Counted from the stretch's first letter, positions 5,150 through 62,027 are shown. The stretch is DNA of 64,000 nt from Candidatus Spongiisociaceae bacterium (GCA_965219685.1 CBDCOH010000002.1:992001-1056000); one strand, 5' to 3'. Numbers and translations: made by a program. Notes: generated by a model not told the origin, from the sequence alone.

Positions 5150-6160
5150 TCACCGGGGCGTCCGGTCCGTGGTTCCGCCCGATTGGTCGGGATCCTGCCT
5201 GCGGTCCCCGGGGCGGGTGGCGCGGGCCAGGAGTTGGGTGTCGGCTGCGAACTCCCCGGATCGTATGCACGACACCGAGTGCTGGTCGCCGTAGTCCTCC
5301 TCGGGCGGCTCCGCTTCAGAACATGCTTCGATGGACCAGGGGCAACGGGGTTCGAGAGGGCATCCCGGAGGGCGGTCCATGGGGCTCGGGATCTCCCCGG
5401 TGAGCTCCACCGGCGCCATCGGGACCGACGGGTCCAGTTCCAACGCCGATTCCATCAGTGCCCGCGTGTAGGGGTGCAGGGGGTCCACGAACAGCCGGTC
5501 GGTGGGGCCCCGCTCGACGATCTTGCCGAGGTACATGATGGCCACCCGTTCGGTGACCGACCGGATCGCGAGCAGGTCGTGGCTGATAAGCAGGATGGCG
5601 GTGGAGGAGTTGCCGCGAAGCTGCTTGATCAACTCCAGGACTCCCGCACGAGCGTCCGGGTCCAGCGCGGTGGTCGGCTCGTCGAGGATCAGCAGGTCCG
5701 GTTCGAGGATGAGCGCGCGGGCGATCGAGGCCCGCTGCAGCAACTCCTCGGGGAGGCCGTCGCAGTCGAGCAGCAGGTGCGTCCGGTCGAGGCCGACCAG
5801 CGCAGCGGCATCCTCCACCCTGGTCGCCAGCCGGGGACCCCTCCGCATGCCGTGGGCGAGGAGTGGATCGGCTATCGCCTCCCACACCTGGAACCGGCGG
5901 TTGACCGAGTCCCTCGGCTCCTGGAAGACCATCCCGACCTGCGCGCCCTCCTTCTCCCAGGAGATGGAACCCCCATCGGGTCTGAGAAGACCGGCCAGGC
6001 ACCTGCCCACGGTGCTCTTCCCGGAACCGCTCTCGCCGATCAACCCCAGGACTTCGCCCTGGTCGATCCGGAAGGAGGCCTCGGCCACAGCCACCAGCCG
6101 GTCCCCTCCCTCTAAACGGAAGACCTTGCGCAAGCCCTCGACGGTGACGACGCGGCTCAT
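5150..6160 (-). CDS. Oligopeptide/dipeptide-type ABC transporter ATPase (DppF-like)
   Basis: Walker A GESGSGKS, Walker B ILDEPT, H-loop SHD, HPYT and Cys-rich C-terminus; signature degenerate (LPEEL). Confidence 0.9.
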   Translation of the reverse strand: MSRVVTVEGLRKVFRLEGGDRLVAVAEASFRIDQGEVLGLIGESGSGKSTVGRCLAGLLRPDGGSISWEKEGAQVGMVFQEPRDSVNRRFQVWEAIADPLLAHGMRRGPRLATRVEDAAALVGLDRTHLLLDCDGLPEELLQRASIARALILEPDLLILDEPTTALDPDARAGVLELIKQLRGNSSTAILLISHDLLAIRSVTERVAIMYLGKIVERGPTDRLFVDPLHPYTRALMESALELDPSVPMAPVELTGEIPSPMDRPPGCPLEPRCPWSIEACSEAEPPEEDYGDQHSVSCIRSGEFAADTQLLARATRPGDRRQDPDQSGGTTDRTPR

Positions 6161-6942
6161 CACACTCTCGCTCGCGCCAGCATCGCGGCTCCGGTCTCGC
6201 TCTCCGGGCCGGAGAAGAACTGCATCGGGTTGGTGTGTTCCACCACCTTGCCGCGGTCCAGGACCGTGATCGTGTCCGCGTAGTGAGCCACGACTCCCAG
6301 ATCCTGGGTGGCGATGACCAGTGTGAAACCCTCCTGCTCGCGGAGGGAGGCGAGGAGGTCCATCAACTGGCGCTGGATGGTCACGTCGAGCCCTCCGGTC
6401 GGGTCGTCGGCCGCGAGGACGGTGGGCTTGAGGAGCAGGGCGAAGCTGAGCAGCACCCGCTTGCGCATCCCGCCGCTGAGCTCGTCGGGCAACGATGCGA
6501 GCACGCGGTCGGGGTCGGCGATGCCCAGATCCAGGAGGGCGGTGCGGGCCTGGTCGTGAATGGTGGCCTTCCGCCGGGATCTCCGCGTGCCGTGGTGGTC
6601 GAGAACGGAGCAGACATCCTCGAAGTGGCGTCCCACCCTGATGACCGGGTTCAGGGCTTCCCGGCCGGAGGCGGGCACGAACAGCAGGCGCCTGCGCCTC
6701 ATGACCAGCCGCTCGGCTGCGGCGACGGTGGCAGGCTCCAGGCCGTCGACCCGCATACGGCCGGTGACCACTGCGGACGAGGGCCACATACCCACGAGGG
6801 CGCGGAGCAGCACGGTCTTGCCCGCCTCCCGTTCGCCGATGAAGGCATGGATCAGGCCGGGCGCCAGCTCGAAGTCGACCTCGTCGAGGAGGCGCTTGTC
6901 GCCGATCGCGAGCGTGAACCCCTCAGCGGTGATGCCGCTCAT
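6160..6942 (-). CDS. Oligopeptide/dipeptide-type ABC transporter ATPase (DppD-like, degenerate site)
   Basis: GEREAGKT, LSGGMRKR, AADDPT, ATQDL; start overlaps upstream stop. Confidence 0.85.
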   Translation of the reverse strand: MSGITAEGFTLAIGDKRLLDEVDFELAPGLIHAFIGEREAGKTVLLRALVGMWPSSAVVTGRMRVDGLEPATVAAAERLVMRRRRLLFVPASGREALNPVIRVGRHFEDVCSVLDHHGTRRSRRKATIHDQARTALLDLGIADPDRVLASLPDELSGGMRKRVLLSFALLLKPTVLAADDPTGGLDVTIQRQLMDLLASLREQEGFTLVIATQDLGVVAHYADTITVLDRGKVVEHTNPMQFFSGPESETGAAMLARARV

Positions 6943-45020: not shown

Positions 45021-47207
45021 TCATGTCGCGGTCGCGTCCACGGGCCGGAGGCCTTTGAAGAGGCCCTGGGGCCGGACCACCAGCGCAACGACGAGCAGCA
45101 CGAACGAAGCCACGACCGCCAGGTTTGTGCCTATCTGGGGGATGTAGAGGGCCAGTCCCGCCTCGACGAGGCCGAGCACCATGGCGCCGCCGAGGGCGCC
45201 CCTGACCGAGCCGAGTCCCGCCATGGCGGTTATGGCGAAGGCCTTGAGCGTCAGGGGCGGACCCTGGAAGGGTTGTACAGCCAGCACCGGGCTTATGAGA
45301 GCACCGGCCACGCCGGTGATGCCGATGCAGATGGCGAACGTCGCCGCGTATACCTTGGCGACGTCGATGCCGACGATCCGTGCCGCCTCCCGGTTCTGGG
45401 CGGCGGCCCGGATACTCTTCCCCAGCCTGCTCCGAGAAAGGAACAGGCTCAGGCCACCCGCCACCGCCAGCGCCACGACCAGGATCCAGAAGCGGGTGAC
45501 GGGCACCGTCACCTCTCCTGCGACGGGCCAGACGCCGTCGAGGACCGTGTCGGCACGCCGGAAGTCCGCCGAGAACACAACCTTCATGACGTTCTGCAGG
45601 ATGATCGCCACCGCGAACATGACTAGCAGCGAGACGAGGTGGGGCCGGTCGATCACGCGGTTGACGAGCAGGCGTTGCGTCCCGAAACCGAGCAGCATCA
45701 TCAGCAGGAACACCGCGGGGACGGTCACGAACGGGTCCACTCCCCAGACGTCGTTGGCGAGCCAGGCCATGTAGGCGCCGATCATCACGAACTCGCCGTG
45801 GGCGAAGTTGATGACCCCCATCACCCCCCAGATGATCGAGAATCCCAGCACGAGAAGGGTGTACATACCGCCGAGGGCGATGCCGTTGACGAGCATCTGC
45901 GCGGCCTTCTTGCCGGTGGAGGCTGGCCCTCCCCCGCTGGAACCGGCAAGGGGATAGATCAGATCGGCTACTGCCGCCTCGTCGGGCGCCACCACTCGGA
46001 TCAGCCCGTCCTGCACCTGGACGGTGCCCATCGGCTTGGCCGCGTTGACGCCGCGCCGGTCGAACGAGATAGGCCCGTAGAACGTGTCTTTCTCCAGTGC
46101 GTAGAGGGCTTCGCGGACCGCGTCGGTGTCGGTGGTCCCGGCGGTCTCGATAGCCAGGTGAAGCGCGAGGGCCGAGGCAGTGGCGCTGGCGGCCTGGTAC
46201 ACGGGCGGATCTCCCCAGAGGCTCTCGTAGTAGGCCGCGTAGTCCGACGCGGTACCGAAGTACGGTCCCTCGTAGGCCATCACCGGTTCCCACTGGGTGG
46301 GACCCAGGACACCGTCCACGTCCTCGCCGAGTTCGTCGATCAGCTTGGGGTTGGACGGTCCCACCGTGATGAGCATCCCGTCCGGAGCGAATCCGAGTTC
46401 CTTGGCTGCGTTGACGAACAGGACCGCATCGTTGTAGTGGCCGCCGCCCACGAAGATGTCGGGGTCCAGGTCGCGGAACTTGGTCATGATCGCCGAGGCA
46501 TCCTGGATGTCCTTGGGGTAGGTCTCCATCGACAAGACCTCGATGCCGGCGGCTTCCATGTGCCGTCGGGCCCCGTTGGCGACCGCGGTTGGGAAGGAGG
46601 TGTCCTCGTAGGCGATCACCGCGGTGCGCGCACCCCGGACAGCTAGGGCCTCGACGGCTGACTTGGTGTAGTCGCTGGCGATGGTGGCTACCAGGAAGAG
46701 GTTGCGGAAGCCGCGCTCGAACATCGTGTCGGAGGTTCCGTTTCCTTCCACCATGATTACGTTGTTGGCCTCGGCGATGGCGCTGGCGCCGGTGGTCAGA
46801 CCGCTCGAGTAGGGGCCGAGCAGGAAGTCGACCCCGTCCTCGTCGATCAGCTTCTGCACCAGGTTGGCAGCCGTGTCGGCGTCGGACTCGTCGTCGTAGT
46901 AGACGATCTCGGCGGCGAACCGGCGGCCGCCGATGTCGATGCCGCCGTACTCCTCGTTGACCCACCGAACCCAGGTGTCGTAGCCCTGGCGGGAGTCCCG
47001 TCCCTCCACGGCGAACTTCCCGGTCTCGCTGAGCGCGGCGCCCAAGCGCACCGTGCCCGCGAAGCCTTGGTCTCCTCCGGCCACGCCCGCGTCGTCAGGC
47101 CTGGTATCAGATTGCCTATCGCTCCCGGCACAACCCACAAGGATCAGCGACAGCACGGCTAACGCGGCCCACCGGCTCAGCATCGGTCCTGGTCGAAATG
47201 AATCCAT
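45021..47207 (-). CDS. Fused LivK-like binding lipoprotein + LivH-like permease
   Basis: Lipobox LVGC, YYDDES, LLGPYSSG; then QMLVNGIALGG..GVMGVINFAHGE; one 728-aa frame. Confidence 0.85.
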   Translation of the reverse strand: MDSFRPGPMLSRWAALAVLSLILVGCAGSDRQSDTRPDDAGVAGGDQGFAGTVRLGAALSETGKFAVEGRDSRQGYDTWVRWVNEEYGGIDIGGRRFAAEIVYYDDESDADTAANLVQKLIDEDGVDFLLGPYSSGLTTGASAIAEANNVIMVEGNGTSDTMFERGFRNLFLVATIASDYTKSAVEALAVRGARTAVIAYEDTSFPTAVANGARRHMEAAGIEVLSMETYPKDIQDASAIMTKFRDLDPDIFVGGGHYNDAVLFVNAAKELGFAPDGMLITVGPSNPKLIDELGEDVDGVLGPTQWEPVMAYEGPYFGTASDYAAYYESLWGDPPVYQAASATASALALHLAIETAGTTDTDAVREALYALEKDTFYGPISFDRRGVNAAKPMGTVQVQDGLIRVVAPDEAAVADLIYPLAGSSGGGPASTGKKAAQMLVNGIALGGMYTLLVLGFSIIWGVMGVINFAHGEFVMIGAYMAWLANDVWGVDPFVTVPAVFLLMMLLGFGTQRLLVNRVIDRPHLVSLLVMFAVAIILQNVMKVVFSADFRRADTVLDGVWPVAGEVTVPVTRFWILVVALAVAGGLSLFLSRSRLGKSIRAAAQNREAARIVGIDVAKVYAATFAICIGITGVAGALISPVLAVQPFQGPPLTLKAFAITAMAGLGSVRGALGGAMVLGLVEAGLALYIPQIGTNLAVVASFVLLVVALVVRPQGLFKGLRPVDATAT

Positions 47208-52628: not shown

Positions 52629-53522
52629 TTACTCGTCGATGTCGCGGTGGCGGACGGTTGCGTGGTACCCGCGTCCCACCAGCCAACTGGCCAGTTCTTC
52701 GGCCATGGCGACTGAGCGATGGCGCCCCCCCGTGCAGCCTATCCCGATGCTCACGTACGACTTCCCCTCCTCCCTGTAACGGGGAACCAGGAATGAGAGA
52801 AGGTCGCGGAGCCTGTCGAGGAATCCGGCGGCATCGCCGTTGGACAGCACGTGTCGCAGAACCTCGGGGTCTCTTCCGGTGAGAGGCCGCAGTTCGGTCT
52901 TCCAATGCGGGTTGGGCAGGAACCGCACGTCGAACATCAGGTCGACATCCCGTGGCGTGCCGTTCTTGAACCCGAACGAGGTGACAACCAGACGCATCGG
53001 GTGGTTGTCCACCAAGGCGGACAAGTGATGGGCGAACCAACTCCGGAGCTGGTGGACGTTGGTCTCGCTGGTGTTGACGTACATGTCGGCCCGCAGCCGC
53101 AGGTCGGCCATCATCGCCCGCTCCGCGGCGATCGAATCGGCGAGGGTCTCCAGGCCGAGGGGGTGGGGGCGACGGTGCTCCTCGTAGCGGCGGATCAGGA
53201 TGTCGTCGTCGGCGTCGAGGAATACCAGGGTCACCTGGATGCCGGCCTGCTCCAGTTCGCGGAAGTGGTCCTCGAGTTCGTTGAGGGGGAAGCCACCCCG
53301 GCTGTCCACCACTACGGCAAGGTGCCGGCTGCCGTCCCGCAGGTTGTTGAGTTCCACCGCCTGGCGGAGCAGATCCGGTGGGAGGTTGTCGATGACGTAG
53401 AAGCCGAGATCCTCGAGGACCTTGGCGCCGCTCGAACGCCCGGCGCCCGAGAGGCCGGTGAGCACCAGGAGTCGGGGGCTCGCACCCTCTGACCCACTCC
53501 GATCGTTCTCAACTGTTGCCAT
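52629..53522 (-). CDS. rapZ: RNase adapter RapZ (YvcJ) P-loop protein
   Basis: TGLSGAGRS, LEDLGFYVIDNLP, SFGFK, DVRFLPNP, GCTGGRHRSV. Confidence 0.95.
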   Translation of the reverse strand: MATVENDRSGSEGASPRLLVLTGLSGAGRSSGAKVLEDLGFYVIDNLPPDLLRQAVELNNLRDGSRHLAVVVDSRGGFPLNELEDHFRELEQAGIQVTLVFLDADDDILIRRYEEHRRPHPLGLETLADSIAAERAMMADLRLRADMYVNTSETNVHQLRSWFAHHLSALVDNHPMRLVVTSFGFKNGTPRDVDLMFDVRFLPNPHWKTELRPLTGRDPEVLRHVLSNGDAAGFLDRLRDLLSFLVPRYREEGKSYVSIGIGCTGGRHRSVAMAEELASWLVGRGYHATVRHRDIDE

Positions 53523-55341
53523 GCAGCGTAGCGTAGAGGTTCTCGGCGACATTCAGCGGTACCACCCGGGCCAGGCGCTCCAGATCGGCGTTCCTCATCT
53601 GCTTCACTGATCCGAACTCGCGGATCAGGGCCTTCTTGCGAGCCGGGCCGATCCCGTAGACGTCATCGAGGATGGAGTCGATCATGCGCTTGCCCCGGAG
53701 TTGGCGGTGGTACATGAGCGCGAAGCGGTGGGCTTCGTCCCTTACCCGCTGCAGGAGGTGAAGCGCCGACTGGTCCCTAGGGATGATGATGGGTTCGGGC
53801 TGTCCCGGTACGTAGACCTCCTCCATCCGCTTGGCCAGGCCTGCCACCGGTATCTGGAGGTCGAAACGGTCGATGACCTCGACGGCGCGCCCGATCTGTC
53901 CGGGCCCGCCGTCGATCAGCACCAGGGAGGGGGGGTAGGCGAACTTCCCCCGTTCGGAGACGGGCTTTTCCAGATCCTGCATGTACGCCGCGAATCGACG
54001 ACGGATCACCTCCTCCATCGAGGAGAAGTCATCCTGGCCCTGGACCGTGCGGATGCGGAATCGCCGGTAGTGGCCCCGGCGCGGGAGCCCGTCCTCGAGA
54101 ACCACCATGGATCCGACCGTGTGGCGCCCTTGGATGGTGGATATGTCGTAGGCCTCTATCCGCAGCGGGGGCTCGGGGAGGGTAAGCACCGTCTGGAGAC
54201 TTCTCAGGTCCTTGGCTCGGGCGTTGTGGTCGGATTGGCGCCGGAGCCGGTGTCGCAGGAACGCATCGGAGGCATTGGTCTTGGCAGTCTGCATGAGCCG
54301 GCGTTTGGCCCCCCGCTGGGGAACCCTGAGCGTCACCCGGGATCCCCGCCGCCTGGACAGCAGATCCGACCAGGGCTCGTCTGCGGGAGGGAGAGCCTCC
54401 ATCAGGATCAGGCGGGGCGGCGGAGAGGATTCGTCGTAAAGATCACGGAGCACCGTTGCCATGATCTGCGCCGGCGTGACGTCCTCGACCTTGTCGATGA
54501 TGGAACCCAGCCGGCCTACGATCCGCCCGCTCCGTATCTTCAGCACCTGCACCGATACTTCGAGGTCGTCTCCTTCAGTGGCGATCAGGTCGAACTCCTC
54601 GGGACGATCGGTCACCACCTCCTGGCGGGCCACCGCCCGGCGGACATCGCGGACCTGGTCCCTGATGCGGGCGGCCCGTTCGTACTCGAGCCGGTCAGAG
54701 GCGGCGAGCATGCGGCGTTCTAGGCGCACCAACAACTCCTCGGCGCTTCCGGTCAGTACCTGGGTGAGGCCGTCCACGTACTCGGCGTAGGTATCCGGAT
54801 CGACGAAACCGACGCACGGCGCCGAGCAGCGTTCGATCTCGTACTCGATGCACGGTCGGTCCTTCAGCTGGTGGCGGCGGAACACGGTGTCCGAGCAGGT
54901 GCGTATTGGTAGGGACTTGAGAAGCAGGTCGAGCGTGTTGCGGATGGCGTAGGCGTGAGCGAAGGGTCCGAAGTACTGAGTGCCCTTCTTCTTGGAGCCG
55001 CGCATGACCCTGGCGCGGGGCCACCGGTCGGAGCGGGTGATGGCCAGGTAGGGGTAGCTCTTGTCGTCCCTAAGCCGGATGTTGAACCGGGGAAGGTGCT
55101 CCTTGATCAGGGAGTACTCGAGAAATAGCGCCGCCACTTCGCTATCCACCACTATCCACTCGACGCGGCTGGAGGATTCGATCATCGCCCGGGTACGCGG
55201 CGCGAGGTCTCTCGAGAAGTAGGACGCCACGCGCTTGCGGAGCGACTTGGCCTTGCCGACGTAGGTCACCTGCCCATAGGTGTCCCGGAACAGGTAGGCG
55301 CCTGGTGCGTCGGGAATCTCGGCTGATGAAGGTCGCTTCAC
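53509..55341 (-). CDS. uvrC: Excinuclease ABC subunit C
   Basis: YVGKAKSLRKRV, RDDKSYP, RIEAYDIS, IDGG.GQ, RDEAHRFA, HhH. Confidence 0.97.
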   Translation of the reverse strand: MKRPSSAEIPDAPGAYLFRDTYGQVTYVGKAKSLRKRVASYFSRDLAPRTRAMIESSSRVEWIVVDSEVAALFLEYSLIKEHLPRFNIRLRDDKSYPYLAITRSDRWPRARVMRGSKKKGTQYFGPFAHAYAIRNTLDLLLKSLPIRTCSDTVFRRHQLKDRPCIEYEIERCSAPCVGFVDPDTYAEYVDGLTQVLTGSAEELLVRLERRMLAASDRLEYERAARIRDQVRDVRRAVARQEVVTDRPEEFDLIATEGDDLEVSVQVLKIRSGRIVGRLGSIIDKVEDVTPAQIMATVLRDLYDESSPPPRLILMEALPPADEPWSDLLSRRRGSRVTLRVPQRGAKRRLMQTAKTNASDAFLRHRLRRQSDHNARAKDLRSLQTVLTLPEPPLRIEAYDISTIQGRHTVGSMVVLEDGLPRRGHYRRFRIRTVQGQDDFSSMEEVIRRRFAAYMQDLEKPVSERGKFAYPPSLVLIDGGPGQIGRAVEVIDRFDLQIPVAGLAKRMEEVYVPGQPEPIIIPRDQSALHLLQRVRDEAHRFALMYHRQLRGKRMIDSILDDVYGIGPARKKALIREFGSVKQMRNADLERLARVVPLNVAENLYATLHGNS

Positions 55342-55514
55342 GGGGTGGCTCCTGTCACCTGCAAGGCTAGTGCCCGTTGTCGGTGGCCCGTTGTGGGTTG
55401 CCGGCTGTCGGAGTGACTCCGGCGACGAGGGGGACTACCTGAAGTGCCGAACCATGCTCGTGGACCCTGCGGAGCGTCTTGAGGGTGTCCTATTCGGGTC
55501 GGGCGCCGGGCCGG

Positions 55515-57599
55515 TCAGCCGAAGGCGCCGAACCATCGCTCGTGGACTTGGCGGTAGAGGCCGCTCTCGATCAGCTCGAGCAAGGCCAGGTTGACTCGCT
55601 CGCGTAGTTCGGGATCCGCCTCGCTGAGCATGAGGGCGTACTGGACCCTCTCGAAGAGCGGTCCCACCGTGGTGATCGCGCCGGCTCCTTCGTGGGCGGT
55701 GTGGAATTGCAGGACCGGGGCGTCGAACACGATGGCTTCGACGTCCCCTTCCTCCAGGAGCCGGTACGCCTCGTCGATGTCGTCGACCAGGACCGGGCCG
55801 ACGCCGACCGCCACCAGATAGGCGTCGCCAGCTGACCCGGAGACTGTGGCCACCCGGTGCCCCGGAAGATCCCCAGGTCCTGATATGTCACCGCGCAGTT
55901 CGTTCACGGCCAGCGACGACGCGATAGAGGCCGTGAAGCTGGCGAAGACCAGGGTGCCCAGCGCGATCCAGACAAGCGCGAAACCCCGACCCAGCCCGCC
56001 TCGCGCAACCTTGTCACCGTACCCGACCGTGCTCATGGTGACCACCGACCAGTAGAAGGAGTCCCATATGCCGCGTCGGTAAGGGACGGCGAAGTCGGGG
56101 TTGTGATGGCGTTCCAGCCACCAGATCAGGTGGGCGGAAACCAGTACGACTATCGCGAACACCACCATCAACCACGGCAGGTCCGACGAGGCGATAGCAC
56201 GGAAGAAGGTCACGATCCGCTGTCCCAGTCCCGGTGAGGCGTGGGTGGGAGCCATCACCGTGAGACCGGTGTCGAGGACCGGCAGCGAGAAGTCCACCCT
56301 CTCCTCCCGGGATCCGGTCACGGCTACGCCTCCCAGTCCCACCTGGGCGATGCCCCGAGTTATGTCGTCCATCTGCTTGGCGACGGTGTCGACCGCGTAG
56401 ATCTCGACCTGCATGCCCAGGTGAGCTGCGATAAGGCGGATGAGCGCCACCTCGAACCCGCTGTAGGCACGGTTCTCGTAGATGACGAAGGGCGGAAGGG
56501 CGCGCGCCGCCACCCGGAGTACGCCTCCCGTAACCGGGGTGGCCTGTTGCTGAGCGGCGAGCACCAGGGCATCGGGGTCGGCCCGGTGTATCCACTCTGA
56601 GACCAGGGCCTCGTTGGCGAGAGCCCAGTCCTCCGCATGGCGACGGAAGTCCTCCGGATCTCCCTCGTCAGCGACCATCAGGGCGTTCTGCGCCGAGATG
56701 TCCTCCATGGGGATCACCACCTGTTCCAGGAGCTTCCGTACGGCGGGGTTGTGCTTCAGGAAGCCGGAGTTCGCCACCGCCCTGATGTCGTTGGGAGGCC
56801 AACCGACCTGGCACGGATCGTTCGCGCATCCGGGAATCCCGGGGATGGAGGTCCGGTCGACGAAGGCTTCCTGGTCAGGTGGGAGGGAGGGGAACGGGGT
56901 TTCCAGCCACACCACATCCCGGCCGGGAACTAGTTCTCCTACCGTCCAGTTGGGGGTCCATGTGTAGTAGAGCACGGGCTCTCCGGCCCGGTGGCGAGCG
57001 ATGGTCTCGGAGATGAGCGGCGAATAGTCCCCCTGGATCTGCTCGATGGTGCCGGATAATCGATAAGTGCTCAGGTGGTGGTCGATGACGTCGGCGCAAG
57101 CCCAGCCGGCGTCGCAGCCGATGAGGTCCGCCTTCCCATTGCCGTCGAGGTCGAACAGGGCTGCCAGTGACGGGTCGGCCAGATCGCCGAGGTTCGTAAT
57201 TCCGTGCTCCGAGGCAGTGGCCGAATCGACGAAGTAACCCTGCAAAGCCCCCGCGTCGACCTGAGTACCCACCGTCTCGACGACTTCCTGCTCGAGTTGA
57301 CGATCGTGGCTCGGGAACCACCCGTTGACCCAGAGGTCGACGTTGCCCGCTGCCACCGAATGGTAGAACTCGTCGTTCTCCATCGTTACCGGACCATCGA
57401 CACGGTACCCGAGGCGTTCGAGAAGAAGCTTGTACACCTCCGCCTGGAACCATCCGGTGTCCCAAGTCGCCCGGGCCATCCGGACCCGCGGATCGTCCGG
57501 CGTCTCGTGATCCGGTTGTCCGGCCCCAGGCCCGGTCCCAACCCACAGGAGCAGAACTGTCACCAGGACTCCCAGAACAGCTAGCGGTGTTCGGCGCAT
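55515..57599 (-). CDS. GluR0-like ligand-gated K+ channel with N-terminal ProX (glycine betaine-binding) domain
   Basis: Signal peptide; ProX motifs; S1 (PPF..TGSREERVDFS); M1; pore WSVVTMSTVGYGD; SFTASIASSL; S2 (FDAP...RWFG). Confidence 0.9.
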   Translation of the reverse strand: MRRTPLAVLGVLVTVLLLWVGTGPGAGQPDHETPDDPRVRMARATWDTGWFQAEVYKLLLERLGYRVDGPVTMENDEFYHSVAAGNVDLWVNGWFPSHDRQLEQEVVETVGTQVDAGALQGYFVDSATASEHGITNLGDLADPSLAALFDLDGNGKADLIGCDAGWACADVIDHHLSTYRLSGTIEQIQGDYSPLISETIARHRAGEPVLYYTWTPNWTVGELVPGRDVVWLETPFPSLPPDQEAFVDRTSIPGIPGCANDPCQVGWPPNDIRAVANSGFLKHNPAVRKLLEQVVIPMEDISAQNALMVADEGDPEDFRRHAEDWALANEALVSEWIHRADPDALVLAAQQQATPVTGGVLRVAARALPPFVIYENRAYSGFEVALIRLIAAHLGMQVEIYAVDTVAKQMDDITRGIAQVGLGGVAVTGSREERVDFSLPVLDTGLTVMAPTHASPGLGQRIVTFFRAIASSDLPWLMVVFAIVVLVSAHLIWWLERHHNPDFAVPYRRGIWDSFYWSVVTMSTVGYGDKVARGGLGRGFALVWIALGTLVFASFTASIASSLAVNELRGDISGPGDLPGHRVATVSGSAGDAYLVAVGVGPVLVDDIDEAYRLLEEGDVEAIVFDAPVLQFHTAHEGAGAITTVGPLFERVQYALMLSEADPELRERVNLALLELIESGLYRQVHERWFGAFG

Positions 57600-57656
57600 C
57601 GATTCATCCGGTTAGGGGAGCCGAAGCGTAGCGAGACGGCAGCACATCTGTACGAG

Positions 57657-57690
57657 AGATAAAGAAAACTGCTCTAAAGATGAAGAAAAC
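57657..57690. promoter_or_regulatory. Direct repeat AGAT(A/G)AAGAAAAC x2 in divergent promoter
   Basis: Copies start at 57657 and 57678 (21-bp period) in an AT-rich spacer. Confidence 0.45.
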
Positions 57691-57816
57691 GAATAGTTTC
57701 CCGACACCCAAAGCACACTGATATGTAGGGTCACATAACCGGGAGAGGACTGGGTCCGCCCGGTGGCGTCTAGAGAGAGGAGCGATAGATGGTTTGGTAC
57801 GACGTGGGACAACGCC

Positions 57817-59586
57817 ATGGCTGACCACGACCAGGACCTAGACCTCACAAGTATCTCGGAGGCCTATGACGACTGGGAGCGGGACGAAGAACGCCGCCGA
57901 GAGGCAGCCATCCGGGATCGTGGGCACTTTGAGGGTCTTCAGATCGATCCGGACATCGACTTCTATCCCGAGGTAGCCGACCGGGAACCCGGTGACAAGA
58001 ACATCGTCAAGTGGGGATTCGACATCCATCCCCAGGTGACGTTCTACGCTGCAGGCTTCCTGCTGGTCTTCATCGCGGCCACTCTGATCTTCCCTGATGC
58101 AGCGGGCGGCGTGTTCAGCGCCATCCTCAACTTCATCAACGAGAAGGTGGGCTGGCTGTACATAATCTCGTTCAACATCTTTATCGGGGCGGCGCTCTAC
58201 TTCGCCTTGGGCAGGTACGGCAAGATCCGACTAGGCGGTCCGGGGGCCCTTCCGGAGTTCTCCACCGCCGCTTGGTACGCCATGCTGATCTCGGCCGGTC
58301 TCGGAATCGGGCTGATGTTCTGGGGTGTGGCAGAGCCGATCTTCCACCTGACGGCACCGCCTCCCCTGTTCGATGTAGAACCGTTGTCGACGGGCGCAGC
58401 TAGGGCCTCCCTGGCGACCTCCTACCTCCACTGGGGGATCCATGGATGGGCGCTGTACGGCCTGGTAGCCCTCGCATTGGGGTTCTTCGCCTACAACCGG
58501 GGATTGCCCCTTACCTTCCGTTCGGTCTTCTACCCGATTCTCGGGCCGAGGATCTACGGCGGATGGGGCAACGCCATCGACATCCTCACCGTTGTGGCCA
58601 CCCTCTTCGGTTTGGCCACCTCGCTGGGATTCGGCGCCTCACAGGCTGCCGCGGGACTGAACAAGGTCTTCGGTGTACCGGATACCCTGTTGACCCAGAT
58701 ACTGCTGATTGCCGGTATCACGGGGCTGGCCACCATCTCGGTGGTGGCGGGCTTGGACGCCGGAGTCAAGAGGCTGAGCGCGCTCAACGTATGGCTGGCC
58801 GCGGCCTTCCTCGTCTTCGTGCTTCTGGTGGGTCCCACCCTGCTGGTCCTCTCGTTGTACGTGGAGAGCATCGGGGTCTACATCCAGATCCTGCCCGAGT
58901 TCTCGTTCTGGAACGCCGCGCTGCTCGACACGCAGTGGCAGCAGTGGTGGACCATCTTCTACTGGGGATGGTGGATCTCCTGGTCCCCCTTCGTCGGTAT
59001 GTTCATCGCGCGAATCTCGAAGGGCCGCTCGGTGCGGGAGATGATCATCGGTGTGATCGTCCTTCCCTGCCTGCTGTGCTTCCTGTGGTTCGCGGTGTTC
59101 GGTGGAGCGGCCATGGATCTCCAGATGCGAGGTACGCTGGACGTGGCCACTGCCGTCAACGAGAACGTGGCGACCGCATTGTTCGTGATGCTGGAGGCCT
59201 TCCCATGGACCTTCTTCGTCTCGATAGTCGGCATCCTGCTGCTGGTCTCCTTCTTCGTCACTTCGTCGGACTCGGGATCGCTGGTGGTGGACCACCTGAC
59301 CTCGGGTGGCAAGCTTGACTCGCCCAAGCCGCAGCGCGTGTTCTGGGCGATCATGGAAGGCTTCGTGGCCATCGTGCTGCTGATCGGAGGCGGCCTGTCG
59401 GCTCTCCAGACGGCTGCCGTGGCTACCGGACTGCCATTCCTCTTCGTGCTCCTGATCATGCTGTGGAGCCTGAAGAAGGCCTTCGACGAGGAGCTCGACC
59501 TGCTCGAGAGCCACTATGACGAGGCCATCTTCCAAGCCCAGCACAGCGGTCTGATCGAGCGACTGGGAAGAGGAGGTGAACAGTGA
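57817..59586 (+). CDS. BCCT family (betaine/carnitine/choline) transporter
   Basis: GIGLMFWGVAEP, HWGIHGW, WTIFYWGWWISWSPFVGMFIARISKGR, FFVTSSDSG. Confidence 0.95.
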   Translation: MADHDQDLDLTSISEAYDDWERDEERRREAAIRDRGHFEGLQIDPDIDFYPEVADREPGDKNIVKWGFDIHPQVTFYAAGFLLVFIAATLIFPDAAGGVFSAILNFINEKVGWLYIISFNIFIGAALYFALGRYGKIRLGGPGALPEFSTAAWYAMLISAGLGIGLMFWGVAEPIFHLTAPPPLFDVEPLSTGAARASLATSYLHWGIHGWALYGLVALALGFFAYNRGLPLTFRSVFYPILGPRIYGGWGNAIDILTVVATLFGLATSLGFGASQAAAGLNKVFGVPDTLLTQILLIAGITGLATISVVAGLDAGVKRLSALNVWLAAAFLVFVLLVGPTLLVLSLYVESIGVYIQILPEFSFWNAALLDTQWQQWWTIFYWGWWISWSPFVGMFIARISKGRSVREMIIGVIVLPCLLCFLWFAVFGGAAMDLQMRGTLDVATAVNENVATALFVMLEAFPWTFFVSIVGILLLVSFFVTSSDSGSLVVDHLTSGGKLDSPKPQRVFWAIMEGFVAIVLLIGGGLSALQTAAVATGLPFLFVLLIMLWSLKKAFDEELDLLESHYDEAIFQAQHSGLIERLGRGGEQ

Positions 59587-60524
59587 TCAAGAGATCGAGC
59601 ACACTGATCGCCGCTCTAGCGGCTTTCGTGCTGATGCTTTCGGCGTGCGGCGTGCAGGACGAAGGTGGTCCCGTGTCCATGGCCCGGGCGAACTGGAGTT
59701 CCGGCTACATGCAGGCTGCCATCTACGCGCAACTGATCGAGGAGCTCGGGCACGAGGTCACCGATCCGGCGGCCGCGACCCTCAGCCCCTACTCGTTCTA
59801 TCCGGCCCTGGCTGCCGGACAGTACGACCTGTGGGCCAACGGGTGGTTCCCTCTCCACGACATCTACCTCGAGGGAGAGAACGTCACGGGCCAGGCGGTG
59901 GATCTGCCGATCGAAGCGGTTGGATGGCAAGTCGCCGACGGCGCCACTGACGGCCTGATGATCGACAAGGCCACGGCTGACAGCTACGGCATCAACTCGA
60001 TGGACGGCGTAGCCGCCAATGCCGGTCTCTTCGACGGCGACGGCGACGGCAAGGCCGACTTGTTCGGATGCAACGTCGGATGGGGTTGCGAAACCGCCAT
60101 CAACGAGCAGATCGCCGATGAGAGTTGGGGCTCCAGAGTGGAGCAGATCTCAGGCACCTATGACGATCTGGCCGCGGGGGTCGTGGGCAAGGTGAACGCC
60201 GGTGAACCGGCGCTCTTCTACGCCTGGACGCCGAACTGGACCAACACCGTCCTGGTGGCCGGGGACAACGCGGTCTGGCTGCAGTCGGCGGTCAACGACA
60301 TCCGCGCGGTGGCCAACACCGACTTCCTGGACGCAAACCCCGACATTGCCCGCCTTCTCGAGGTGGTAGCGATCCCGCTGAGCGACATCGCCGCTCAGAA
60401 CGCCAAGATGGCGGCAGCCGACGAGTACTCCGAGGCTGATGTCGCGGCCGACGCCGAGGCCTGGATCGCCTCCAACCGCGACAAGGTCGACAGTTGGCTG
60501 GAATCGGCACGAGCCGCCGGCTGA
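59583..60524 (+). CDS. ProX-like glycine betaine/proline-binding lipoprotein
   Basis: Lipobox LSAC; NGWFP, DGDGDGKADLFGCNVGWGC, YAWTP; GTGA overlap with BCCT stop and GGAGG ribosome-binding site. Confidence 0.9.
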   Translation: MIKRSSTLIAALAAFVLMLSACGVQDEGGPVSMARANWSSGYMQAAIYAQLIEELGHEVTDPAAATLSPYSFYPALAAGQYDLWANGWFPLHDIYLEGENVTGQAVDLPIEAVGWQVADGATDGLMIDKATADSYGINSMDGVAANAGLFDGDGDGKADLFGCNVGWGCETAINEQIADESWGSRVEQISGTYDDLAAGVVGKVNAGEPALFYAWTPNWTNTVLVAGDNAVWLQSAVNDIRAVANTDFLDANPDIARLLEVVAIPLSDIAAQNAKMAAADEYSEADVAADAEAWIASNRDKVDSWLESARAAG

Positions 60525-60559
60525 TAGCTCTAGAACCGAGCTAGCAAGCAGCAGAGAAC

Positions 60560-60596
60560 AAGACCCGGCTCCCCATCTCAAGGGGAGCCGGGTCTT
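60560..60596. terminator. Hairpin terminator between convergent genes
   Basis: AAGACCCGGCTCCCC-loop-GGGGAGCCGGGTCTT. Confidence 0.8.
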
Positions 60597-60624
60597 CGCG
60601 AGGTCCGCTTTTTTGGACCCTGGA

Positions 60625-61320
60625 TCATCGCCGCCATCGCAGTGCCATGAGGTGTGGGATCCCCCGATGTTTCGCCAGGATTGGGTCTCTGGTGGCCGCG
60701 CCCGAACCTACGCCCCGCTCACGCACCTCTTCCAGCATCCATCCCGATGCAGCCGCCCCGGTTAGCAGCGTCCCGATCGGTCGGTGGATGAACTCGACGA
60801 AACGGTCTCCGGCCGGGTCCCTCGTGCGGCCCGTTTTCAAGTAGTCCCCGAACCTCCAGAAGAGTTCCCCGTCAGTCGGGTCGAGCACCGGCCCCGAGTG
60901 TGGTGCGGTGTAGACCGGATGGTTGATAACCGCAGTCAGCGTTCCCCCGGGCCGGGTCACTCTCGCGGTCTCGGCGAAGAACCCTTCGGCGTTCTCGAAA
61001 TGTTCGAGCGCCAGCACCACGTACGCCCCGTCGACCGCCGCATCCCTCACGCAGGCCAGGTCCGGCAGGCGGTGGAGGAAGACCGGGTGACTACGCGCGG
61101 CGATCCCGGCCAGATCGATGTTGATGTCCACGCCGATCGCAATGGCGCCCCGCTCTGCCGTCACGTCCTGCATACGGCCGTCCCCGCATCCGAGGTCGAG
61201 CAGGACCTCGCCCGGTAGCGGCCGGAACACCTTGAGGAAGAGCGGCACCACCTCCTCCCGGTAGGCAGGATCATCGGCTTCCACCAGCCACCAGTCGGCT
61301 AGTCCGTTCCAGTCGTCCAC
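60625..61320 (-). CDS. Class I SAM-dependent methyltransferase
   Basis: LLDLGCGDG, GVDI, RVTRPGG, INHP. Confidence 0.85.
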   Translation of the reverse strand: MDDWNGLADWWLVEADDPAYREEVVPLFLKVFRPLPGEVLLDLGCGDGRMQDVTAERGAIAIGVDINIDLAGIAARSHPVFLHRLPDLACVRDAAVDGAYVVLALEHFENAEGFFAETARVTRPGGTLTAVINHPVYTAPHSGPVLDPTDGELFWRFGDYLKTGRTRDPAGDRFVEFIHRPIGTLLTGAAASGWMLEEVRERGVGSGAATRDPILAKHRGIPHLMALRWRR

Positions 61321-61372: not shown

Positions 61373-61921
61373 TCACCGTCCGAGCTCCCACTGCTTCACC
61401 ATCCGATGTTGCGCTGCTGTCTGGGGAGTCGCCATGTAACCGCCCTTCCTGTCACCCTGAAGGCGCAGTCTTTGCACCAGTTCGATCGCGGCGCCGGCCC
61501 CTGCGTAACCATGCCTCCGCAGCCAGCACCCCACCACGGTGCCCGTCCGTCCGCTCCCACCCCAGCAGTGAACGTAGACACTGCATCCGTGCTCGAGGTG
61601 CCGGTCGATCACATGGAGTGTGGTCACCATCTCCGCTGCGGCGGTCACCCCCATGTCCGGGATCTGGCGGCGAACCACCAGCGCGTGGCGGTCAGTCGCG
61701 GGGATGTCGTAGCGGTTCATGTGAGCGTCGGTGCCACCGGGATAGTCCTGGGTAAGGTTCACGAATACGTTGACACCGGCATCCAGCAATTGGGTCAGCT
61801 TGCTGCGTGACCCGACCGGGTTGGGATATGCGCCGGCAGCGAAGCGCCCGGGGACCACCCAGTAGGACCGATCGGTCGGACCGATCTCCCCTCTCCCGGC
61901 CAGCTCCAGGTCCAAGAACAT
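61373..61921 (-). CDS. Protein-tyrosine/dual-specificity phosphatase family protein
   Basis: YWVVPGRFAAGAYP, IPDMG, HCWGGSGRTG (CX5R), PQTAAQ; start uncertain. Confidence 0.85.
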   Translation of the reverse strand: MFLDLELAGRGEIGPTDRSYWVVPGRFAAGAYPNPVGSRSKLTQLLDAGVNVFVNLTQDYPGGTDAHMNRYDIPATDRHALVVRRQIPDMGVTAAAEMVTTLHVIDRHLEHGCSVYVHCWGGSGRTGTVVGCWLRRHGYAGAGAAIELVQRLRLQGDRKGGYMATPQTAAQHRMVKQWELGR

Positions 61922-61993
61922 CCGGTGACTCCCCTTCGCTCCCGCTACCGATGCGGTTGAGGCTAGAGGATCTGTTCCAAGGCTATTCCGTCC

Positions 61994-62027
61994 CCCCATT
62001 CACCATTCACCATTCACCATTCACCAT
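61994..62027. repeat. Heptamer array (CACCATT) x4-5 directly after the uvrA stop
   Basis: Minus strand reads TAG (ATGGTGA)4 ATGGGG. Confidence 0.92.

Follow-up and report, generated by a model that had tools for sequence, protein, structure and literature searches.

On an osmotic upshift, K+ accompanied by glutamate is the first osmolyte that bacteria accumulate, and it is later exchanged for compatible solutes. BetP, a carrier of the BCCT family, is activated by K+ through its basic C-terminal domain. In ionotropic glutamate receptors (iGluRs), a conserved Arg binds the alpha-carboxylate of the ligand, Ser/Thr residues make further contacts and an acidic residue binds the alpha-amine. The role of the bacterial GluR0-type relatives of these receptors is open. 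They include GluR0 of Synechocystis PCC 6803, its Nostoc punctiforme homologue (ligand-binding domain structure 2pyy) and the "Group 1" prokaryotic receptors (PMC2950845). Here we analyzed 64,000 nucleotides from Candidatus Spongiisociaceae bacterium (GCA_965219685.1, CBDCOH010000002.1:992001-1056000; this whole stretch is called the window below), in which the gene of a channel of this type lies beside genes for a BCCT transporter and a ProX-type lipoprotein. The channel shares with GluR0 the S1-M1-P-M2-S2 arrangement, the absence of M4, the TVGYGD filter and an SBP_bac_3-type ligand-binding domain with conserved Arg, Thr/Ser and Asp positions, but it differs by an extra ProX/OpuAC domain of 300 amino acids (aa) placed before S1. 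Neither "OpuAC" nor "betaine" occurs in the text of Ger et al. (2010; PMC2950845), who surveyed these prokaryotic receptors.

We document the domain anatomy of this channel, the conservation of its binding residues and of its K+ filter, its conserved linkage to the two other genes and the joint absence of channel and BCCT from related genomes. A functional link between the channel and the importer is likely. We consider it probable, on balance, that the locus is a mobile cassette of three genes that takes up a betaine-type solute and includes its own ion-channel sensor, which would couple the external solute to a K+ conductance. An osmolyte-sensing member of the GluR0 type encoded beside an importer constitutes a concrete and testable hypothesis for the role of these channels.

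Domain anatomy and conserved sites of the channel

The channel starts with an N-terminal signal or anchor sequence. Pfam assigned OpuAC to aa 38-325 and SBP_bac_3 to aa 362-691, the latter split by Ion_trans_2 (aa 482-563) and Lig_chan (aa 476-579). The last residue, aa 694, lies three beyond the final SBP_bac_3 position and leaves no M4. Among solved structures, the second half matched the ligand-binding core of Nostoc GluR0 best (2pyy; E = 3e-35), with plant GLR3.4 and subunits of NMDA receptors next. The Nostoc core aligned to the channel in two pieces (aa 361-451 and 569-691), and R431, T428, T585, S589 and D626 of the channel are identical to 2pyy at the aligned positions. This second half is predicted to be a complete GluR0-type K+ channel (S1-M1-P-M2-S2 with TVGYGD). 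The fused ProX domain scored 334.3 bits on the NCBIfam ProX equivalog NF008334 (cutoff 215), and its closest solved relative was E. coli ProX (1r9l; E = 1e-64). Its residues W94, W166, W214, H98 and C162-C168 align with W65, W140, W188, H69 and C136-C142 of the E. coli protein. The domain contains an extra Cys pair, C258/C263.

Conservation of these sites was scored on an alignment of 40 fused homologues sharing 33-87% identity. Within the ProX cage, C162 and C168 were invariant (40/40), and W94 was conserved in 38 sequences, W166 in 37, H98 in 36 and W214 in 35 (with F in 4 others). The ligand-binding domain was similarly constrained (R431, 39/40; T428, 38/40; S589, 36/40 with T in 4 others; D626, 36/40), and the filter TVGYGD was kept in 39 of the 40. 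The presence of two conserved binding sites argues for a two-input receptor. By topology, the pore is expected to be driven by the amino-acid-type clamshell, the ProX domain forming an extra distal layer at the N-terminus. Since the amino-acid-binding domain would gate the pore, betaine would be expected to modulate it allosterically, as a second input. The initial annotation had recognized the fusion of ProX to a channel and had overlooked this second, GluR0-type binding module connected to the pore.

The fused family is large: a word-indexed search matched 752 proteins at E <= 0.001, among which at least 120 are full-length fused forms, and the architecture was found in about eleven clusters of 50% representatives, down to 35% identity. 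Orthologues of the channel are found across Actinomycetota at 56-95% identity, and one carrier belongs to a named genus (Haloactinopolyspora, RefSeq WP_165358706.1). Public databases name these channels [quoted passage not shown] and they are therefore invisible to searches for ion channels.

Some relatives depart from this anatomy. In two fused representatives of 50%-identity clusters, P0129 and P0140, the motif SGREGWG replaces the TVGYGD filter, and these two channels probably select other ions. In addition, P0129, with 1008 aa, contains two tandem ProX domains. ProX domains close to that of the channel occur in many further multidomain proteins (P0145, P0150, P0162, P0199, P0259 and P0272), in combination with WD40 repeats, caspase-PEGA, STAND NTPase-kinase, trypsin-like protease, VWA or a second binding protein. 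Evolution seems to have employed the ProX domain repeatedly, for sensing or for recruitment.

Linkage of the channel, BCCT and ProX genes

A full-length fused channel was found in 19 of the 24 genomes of the window's own family (a tally that takes in the unpublished genome G028) and in none of the 16 genomes of the order's other families. The initial annotation had itself named conserved linkage in other genomes as the test of its proposal. BCCT and ProX genes adjoin the channel in all 19 of these genomes; the uvrC flank is missing in five of the loci, including L036, whose gene order differs. We also searched a genome collection with an alignment of 12 fused proteins and obtained 40 loci encoding >550 aa of the channel, several of which repeat contigs already present in the genome search. 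Twenty-seven are of the actinobacterial type (>=56% identity) and 26 of them present both neighbours, the 27th having only 239 bp of upstream sequence. Three gene orders were observed in the collection: 17 loci are divergent as in the window, five are co-directional (BCCT>ProX>channel) and four are convergent.

The channel is present in 7 of 301 genomes of a class-wide sample. Four of these, Acidimicrobiia from other families, carry the trio, and one (G060) has a frameshifted channel followed by the BCCT. The trio was also found in one genome of another class. Of the 401 genomes in a sample of the phylum centred on the BCCT, seven encode a close BCCT (four trios, one BCCT-ProX pair, one channel-BCCT and one BCCT alone), so the channel lies next to it in 5 of the 7. 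The BCCT is absent from all five genomes of the window's family that lack the channel, which are 94, 91, 88, 78 and 72% complete.

A comparable neighbourhood exists in Desulfobacterales (L052, L089 and L144), where overlapping genes are arranged as BCCT>OpuAC substrate-binding protein (SBP)>channel. This SBP falls in the choline-binder-like subfamily of OpuAC, with a score of about 135 bits on TIGR03414 that does not reach the cutoff. In an unrooted quick tree, the Desulfobacterales BCCT stands across a long branch, and unlinked BCCTs of a cyanobacterium and a Bacteroidota genome are nearer to the actinobacterial ones. Since both the BCCT and the SBP are of other lineages, this neighbourhood was assembled or remodelled independently. 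In a fourth Desulfobacterota locus (L051), no BCCT was found in the 3.6 kb upstream of the channel. These results indicate a linkage that is strong and was re-invented or remodelled in two phyla, but not universal. The channel itself is self-standing, and in two lineages it has become tied to an importer.

Two loci present further peculiarities. The channel homologue of L127 (8213-10197; 45% identity) shifts frame after the filter, at about aa 535, and represents either a pseudogene or an assembly error. In L067, from a cyanobacterial metagenome-assembled genome (MAG), a gene for the mechanosensitive channel MscL (5779-6210, + strand) directly follows the fused channel, which is another link to osmotic stress.

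The BCCT transporter and the free ProX lipoprotein

The BCCT is the only one of the genome and scored 613.3 bits with Pfam BCCT (cutoff 27) and 491.7 bits with TIGR00842 (cutoff 407.55). Among solved structures, the Na+-dependent trimethylamine transporter TmaT ranks first (8zw8, 507 bits), with BetT-type proteins and BetP (299 bits) behind. Alignments identified GLGIG in transmembrane helix 3 (TM3), W..W..Y in TM4 and WWISW (within WGWWISW) in TM8, as in BetP and TmaT. The TmaT study (PMC11708041) describes the GxGxG motif and the TM4/TM8 aromatic boxes as markers of Na+ coupling and of quaternary-ammonium substrates, and the substrate is therefore probably a small trimethylammonium compound. 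Betaine is our best guess, because both ProX modules carry the E. coli-type signature including the carboxylate-binding His; trimethylamine (TMA), trimethylamine N-oxide (TMAO) and others remain candidates.

The proposal that all three proteins carry aromatic cages was borne out, as the Trp triads of the two ProX modules align with that of E. coli ProX and the BCCT has WGWWISW. The predicted ligand specificities are also compatible, with a glycine-betaine signature in both ProX modules and the markers of a Na+-coupled quaternary-amine carrier in the BCCT. The analogy with BetP and its activation by cytoplasmic K+, by contrast, does not seem to transfer to this protein, to which TmaT is closer than BetP. 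The C-terminal tail of the BCCT (aa 571-607) has 37 aa with a net charge of -5, and nothing aligns to BetP past residue 584. A BetP-style K+ sensor is therefore not evident. The N-terminal extension is also acidic (net charge -13).

The GTG start codon of the lipoprotein gene overlaps the BCCT stop codon (GTGA) and is preceded by AGGAGG. The lipobox Cys is conserved, and the protein scored 228.8 bits on NF008334 (same cutoff of 215). Its binding site, aligned to 1r9l (W88, W167, W215, H92, C163/C169), is invariant in 19 orthologues. The free ProX shares 41% identity with the fused domain and is without a 33-aa loop that contains Cys. Six further ProX paralogues are encoded elsewhere in the genome, as well as four ProV-type ATPases above the family cutoff (contig positions 427, 433, 1536 and 4163 kb), partly beside ProX paralogues. 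The cassette lies at about 1048-1053 kb of the contig, with no above-cutoff ProV-type ATPase within about 480 kb, and none of the 19 cassettes of the family includes an ABC permease or ATPase gene (ProW, ProV).

In a maximum likelihood tree that we reconstructed from 54 ProX domains, the fused domains, 21 in number, group together (support 83/94), which makes a single origin of the fusion possible. Fifteen free ProX proteins adjacent to a BCCT, including those of three channel-less pairs, form their own clade (100/99), and the genome's other, ABC-linked paralogues form a third (100/99). We considered that the free ProX could be a recent duplicate of the fused domain and rejected this, given that the two fall into separate and well-supported groups. 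The separate BCCT-adjacent clade suggests instead that the free ProX is a dedicated companion of the BCCT.

Alternatively, the free ProX could be an orphan binding protein that feeds a ProU-type ABC importer encoded elsewhere and serves neither the BCCT nor the channel. Four ProV-type ATPases above the family cutoff exist elsewhere in the genome, and the partnership between an SBP and a BCCT receives no Rosetta-stone support, as no BCCT-OpuAC fusion was found among the best 120 of 302 longer ProX relatives, which is weak evidence. Against this stand the well-supported separation from the ABC-linked paralogues, the translational coupling to the BCCT, the persistence of the BCCT-ProX pair without the channel in four genomes and the presence of a different OpuAC subfamily in the same position in Desulfobacterales. 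We judge this alternative fairly unlikely.

Proposed function and alternative explanations

In the function that we propose, the BCCT would be a Na+-coupled symporter importing a solute of the glycine-betaine type. The free ProX would most likely capture this solute at the surface of the single-membrane cell for the BCCT, or else present it to the channel. The channel would form a tetrameric GluR0-type K+ channel whose pore is driven by the amino-acid-binding clamshell, and its outer ProX layer would recognize solutes of the class bound by the free ProX and tune gating allosterically, much like the amino-terminal domains of NMDA receptors. Such a solute-sensitive K+ conductance could adjust the K+ pool and the membrane potential during solute uptake, because K+ (with glutamate) precedes compatible solutes and Na+-solute symport is electrogenic. 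At membrane potentials more negative than the K+ equilibrium potential, an open K+ channel admits K+ and depolarises the cell. Betaine might open the channel (providing charge balance and K+ entry) or close it (K+ being no longer needed). Two studies provide precedents for parts of this idea: in Halobacterium, CosB, a member of the OpuAC family, signals to a chemotaxis transducer (PMC8050422), and an engineered SBP binding the compatible solute ectoine gates the GluR0 pore (bioRxiv 10.1101/2021.01.27.428399). A more specific version of the proposal, in which a GluR0-type K+ channel with a betaine-binding allosteric layer acts as a two-input receptor, united with the first binding-protein-assisted BCCT so that the external osmolyte sets the K+ conductance, is offered tentatively and with some doubt.

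The initial annotation had proposed that the locus couples betaine sensing to K+ flux and betaine uptake. Linkage, co-absence and the predicted ligand classes are in line with this, but ProX is, by topology, not the gating domain and the channel occurs alone elsewhere. Several observations weigh against the coupling. Gating by betaine is something that we infer, because the pore is topologically coupled to the amino-acid-binding domain and not to ProX. None of the seven cyanobacterial loci (L049, L065, L067, L101 and L146-L148) has a linked BCCT or OpuAC gene within the approximately 1.6-8 kb in which neighbours were looked for, and the channel is also unlinked in one Bacteroidota locus, one Chloroflexota locus whose upstream flank is missing and one unassigned locus, so the channel can work alone; a BCCT is encoded elsewhere in two of the three such genomes checked. 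Genome G060 (L127) has the channel and the BCCT with no free ProX, the BCCT-ProX pair occurs without the channel in L070, L075, L079 and G542, and the linked genomes are mostly interrelated, so that our counts overstate the number of independent observations. Regarding the substrate, the BCCT falls below the cutoff of the NCBIfam glycine-betaine uptake equivalog NF047988 (541.6 versus 650) and this curated model therefore assigns it no substrate; its best solved relative, TmaT, is reported to be specific for trimethylamine (PMC11708041). Finally, the genome encodes betaine-catabolism-type proteins (3 MttB-family and DMGDH/SoxA-like matches) near ProU-type ABC systems, and uptake may therefore feed metabolism rather than osmoprotection.

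This last point leads to the main rival in purpose, which assigns the same parts to nutrient scavenging: betaine-type compounds derived from a host or the environment would serve as a source of carbon, nitrogen or methyl groups, and the channel would act as a chemosensor or balance charge during high-flux uptake. In favour of this are the three MttB-family methyltransferases and several DMGDH/SoxA-like proteins; many carriers are also MAGs whose titles name sponge-associated lineages, and sponge, marine and coral metagenome runs contain 23-35% of the window's sampled words. The catabolic genes, however, cluster with ProU-type ABC systems at 414-463 kb, about 590 kb away from the cassette. Other members of the channel family come from cyanobacteria, from Desulfobacterales of sediments and from the Bacteroidota MAG titled GSL.Bin13. 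Overall, scavenging as the purpose of the cassette seems unlikely.

The region at 414-463 kb of contig 2 deserves mention for its own content: it contains two MttB-family genes, three DMGDH/SoxA-like genes, two ProV-type ATPases and a tandem ProX in one 800-aa frame, and likely represents a quaternary-amine catabolic island.

It is decidedly improbable that the three genes are only loosely adjacent, with an autonomous amino-acid-gated K+ channel whose ProX domain is a tether or structural relic and a BCCT-ProX operon that just travels alongside: unlinked channels in all seven cyanobacterial loci and several other phyla, channel-less BCCT-ProX pairs and the separate clades of the free and fused ProX (no recent copy) would fit this, but the binding residues of the fused ProX are kept across phyla, the trio persists in three gene orders and several genomic contexts and is seen again in Desulfobacterales, where the BCCT and the SBP are not orthologous, and the channel and the BCCT are lost together. 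We retain solute import with a channel-based sensor as the favoured function of the cassette.

Layout, insertion site and spacer of the cassette

The initial annotation had assigned the channel, the BCCT, the ProX lipoprotein and a hairpin to positions 55515 to 60596, and ORF listing and domain scans (ORF, open reading frame) recovered every one of these elements where it had been placed (Table 1).

Table 1. Coordinates of the cassette, its subdomains and its neighbours within the window (SD, Shine-Dalgarno sequence)
Feature	Position	Strand	Basis or remarks
uvrC	53509-55341	-	ORF listing, translation, Pfam/NCBIfam scans
ProX-GluR0 channel gene, 694 aa	55515-57599	-	Signal/anchor, ProX, S1, M1-P-M2, S2; no M4
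Channel, ligand-binding segment S2, aa 566-692, with T585, S589, D626	55524-55904	-	Pfam, 2pyy alignment
Channel, pore M1-P-M2, aa 474-565, filter TVGYGD aa 524-529	55905-56180	-	Ion_trans_2, Lig_chan
Channel, ligand-binding segment S1, aa 358-452, with T428, R431	56244-56528	-	SBP_bac_3, Lig_chan-Glu_bd, 2pyy alignment
Channel, N-terminal ProX/OpuAC domain, aa 38-341	56577-57488	-	Cage W94/W166/W214, H98, disulfide C162-C168
Divergent AT-rich spacer, 217 bp	57600-57816		-10-like hexamers for both genes, conserved A-rich block
Leader ORF, 11 codons (MVWYDVGQRHG)	57789-57824	+	SD GAGAGGAG ahead; conserved spacer columns
BCCT transporter, 589 aa from ATG 57817	57817-59586	+	Frame open from GTG 57763
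ProX-type lipoprotein, 313 aa	59583-60524	+	Translationally coupled to BCCT
Terminator hairpin, 15-bp stem, 7-nt loop	60560-60596	+	Fold versus shuffles
Class-I methyltransferase	60625-61320	-	Pfam/NCBIfam scans
Dual-specificity phosphatase	61373-61999	-	Pfam/NCBIfam scans
uvrA	62028 to window end	-	Pfam/NCBIfam scans

The site between uvrC and uvrA had been named correctly, although the methyltransferase and phosphatase genes on the uvrA side had gone unmentioned. In cassette-less relatives (G009, G014 and, from another family, G025), uvrA, the methyltransferase gene and uvrC are contiguous, with gaps of 48-358 bp before uvrC. This arrangement fits the proposed insertion and places the 5-kb cassette between the methyltransferase gene and uvrC. 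The trio also occupies other genomic contexts. No flanking direct or inverted repeats were found at the borders of the cassette. A 50-nt inverted match (56744-56793 and 60293-60342) was considered as a possible element border and rejected, since it is just paralogous ProX coding sequence on opposite strands. By tblastn, the phosphatase gene was detected only in part of the genus-level group to which the window's genome belongs.

The spacer has a GC-content of 0.53 (0.42 in its core; computed on 57600-57817) against 0.665 for the window. When the divergent spacers of eleven relatives were aligned, the most conserved columns were the Shine-Dalgarno sequence GAGAGGAG (57775-57782) and the ATG at 57789, which is out of frame with the BCCT. 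The short leader ORF that starts there terminates at a TGA (57822-57824) overlapping the BCCT start codon (ATGGCTGA). A leader ORF of 11 codons (12 in two cases) with a Shine-Dalgarno sequence and a stop codon over the BCCT start was found in 22 of 54 rows, all of them from the window's own family-level clade; two pairs among these 22 represent the same contig twice. The sequence of the leader peptide varies but its length is kept. A wider pattern search that covered 25 of the remaining, more distant loci detected none. The leader likely mediates translational coupling by termination-reinitiation, which fixes the BCCT start at ATG 57817 and hence agrees with the initial figure of about 217 bp for the spacer. 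The upstream GTG at 57763 is a less likely start, because the conserved Shine-Dalgarno sequence serves the out-of-frame leader that ends on the ATG.

Also conserved in the spacer is an A-rich block with GTTTCC after it (about 57680-57708). A TANNNT hexamer faces the BCCT (TAGGGT, 57726-57731), and another, on the minus strand near 57625, faces the channel (TACGCT). These elements (57640-57740) possibly constitute an operator or an UP element. No regulator gene is present in the cassette. A search of positions 55300-60700 returned no Rfam match at E <= 1, and thus no riboswitch, c-di-AMP types included, was found in the spacer. Among sequencing runs, none of RNA matched the window. The terminator hairpin has a perfect stem with a folding energy of -41.7 kcal/mol (z = -6.1; 0 of 200 shuffles fold as well), and a second small hairpin and a T-run lie downstream of it.

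Elsewhere in the window, a 728-aa frame (45024-47207, - strand) combines Peripla_BP_6 (aa 52-401) with a BPD_transp_2 branched-chain amino-acid permease domain (aa 438-709). Its product is a possible fusion of the binding protein and permease of an ABC importer.

Comparison with known systems

Full-text literature searches, from which subscription journals were largely outside, returned no description of an OpuAC-fused GluR0 channel, of an SBP-linked BCCT or of the leader ORF. What this work adds is the leader ORF, the finding that channel and BCCT are absent together, the site of insertion, the distinct clade formed by BCCT-linked ProX proteins and the non-orthologous trio of Desulfobacterales. 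Because the trio recurs in distant bacteria, we suspect a hitherto unstudied unit that ties the uptake of osmolytes to the flow of potassium.

Both ProX modules share with E. coli ProX (1r9l) and OpuAC proteins the Trp triad, the His and the Cys-Cys bridge, but neither is encoded together with ABC permease or ATPase genes: one forms part of a channel, and the gene of the other is coupled to that of a secondary transporter. The BCCT shares the GxGxG motif and the TM4/TM8 aromatic boxes with BetP of Corynebacterium glutamicum and TmaT of Myroides profundi (8zw8), and is closer to TmaT than to BetP. Its C-terminal tail is acidic, whereas the K+-sensing domain of BetP is basic. It also differs from the BCCT carriers in the literature searched by being encoded with a binding protein, which none of those is described to have. 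Binding proteins serving secondary transporters have precedents in the TRAP and TTT transporters. These, like CosB/CosT of Halobacterium, are precedents in principle, from families unrelated to the cassette. Our results raise the possibility that BCCT carriers use binding proteins as well, which would extend the TRAP/TTT principle.

The channel also resembles eukaryotic iGluRs (NMDA receptors, plant GLR3.4) in its two-layer design, with a distal domain of binding-protein fold atop the domain that gates the pore. The sequence match to these receptors runs from the ligand-binding domain through the pore, and the channel differs from them by its K+ filter and by lacking M4 and a C-terminal domain. 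The distal folds are also different: class-II OpuAC in the channel and LIVBP-like in the eukaryotic amino-terminal domain. The outer layer of the channel is therefore best explained as an independent acquisition. If our proposal is correct, this family represents a natural case of modular evolution of ligand-gated channels by addition of a second binding-protein layer, a process explored mainly with engineered chimeras, and this layer would have arisen convergently with the amino-terminal domain that animal NMDA receptors carry.

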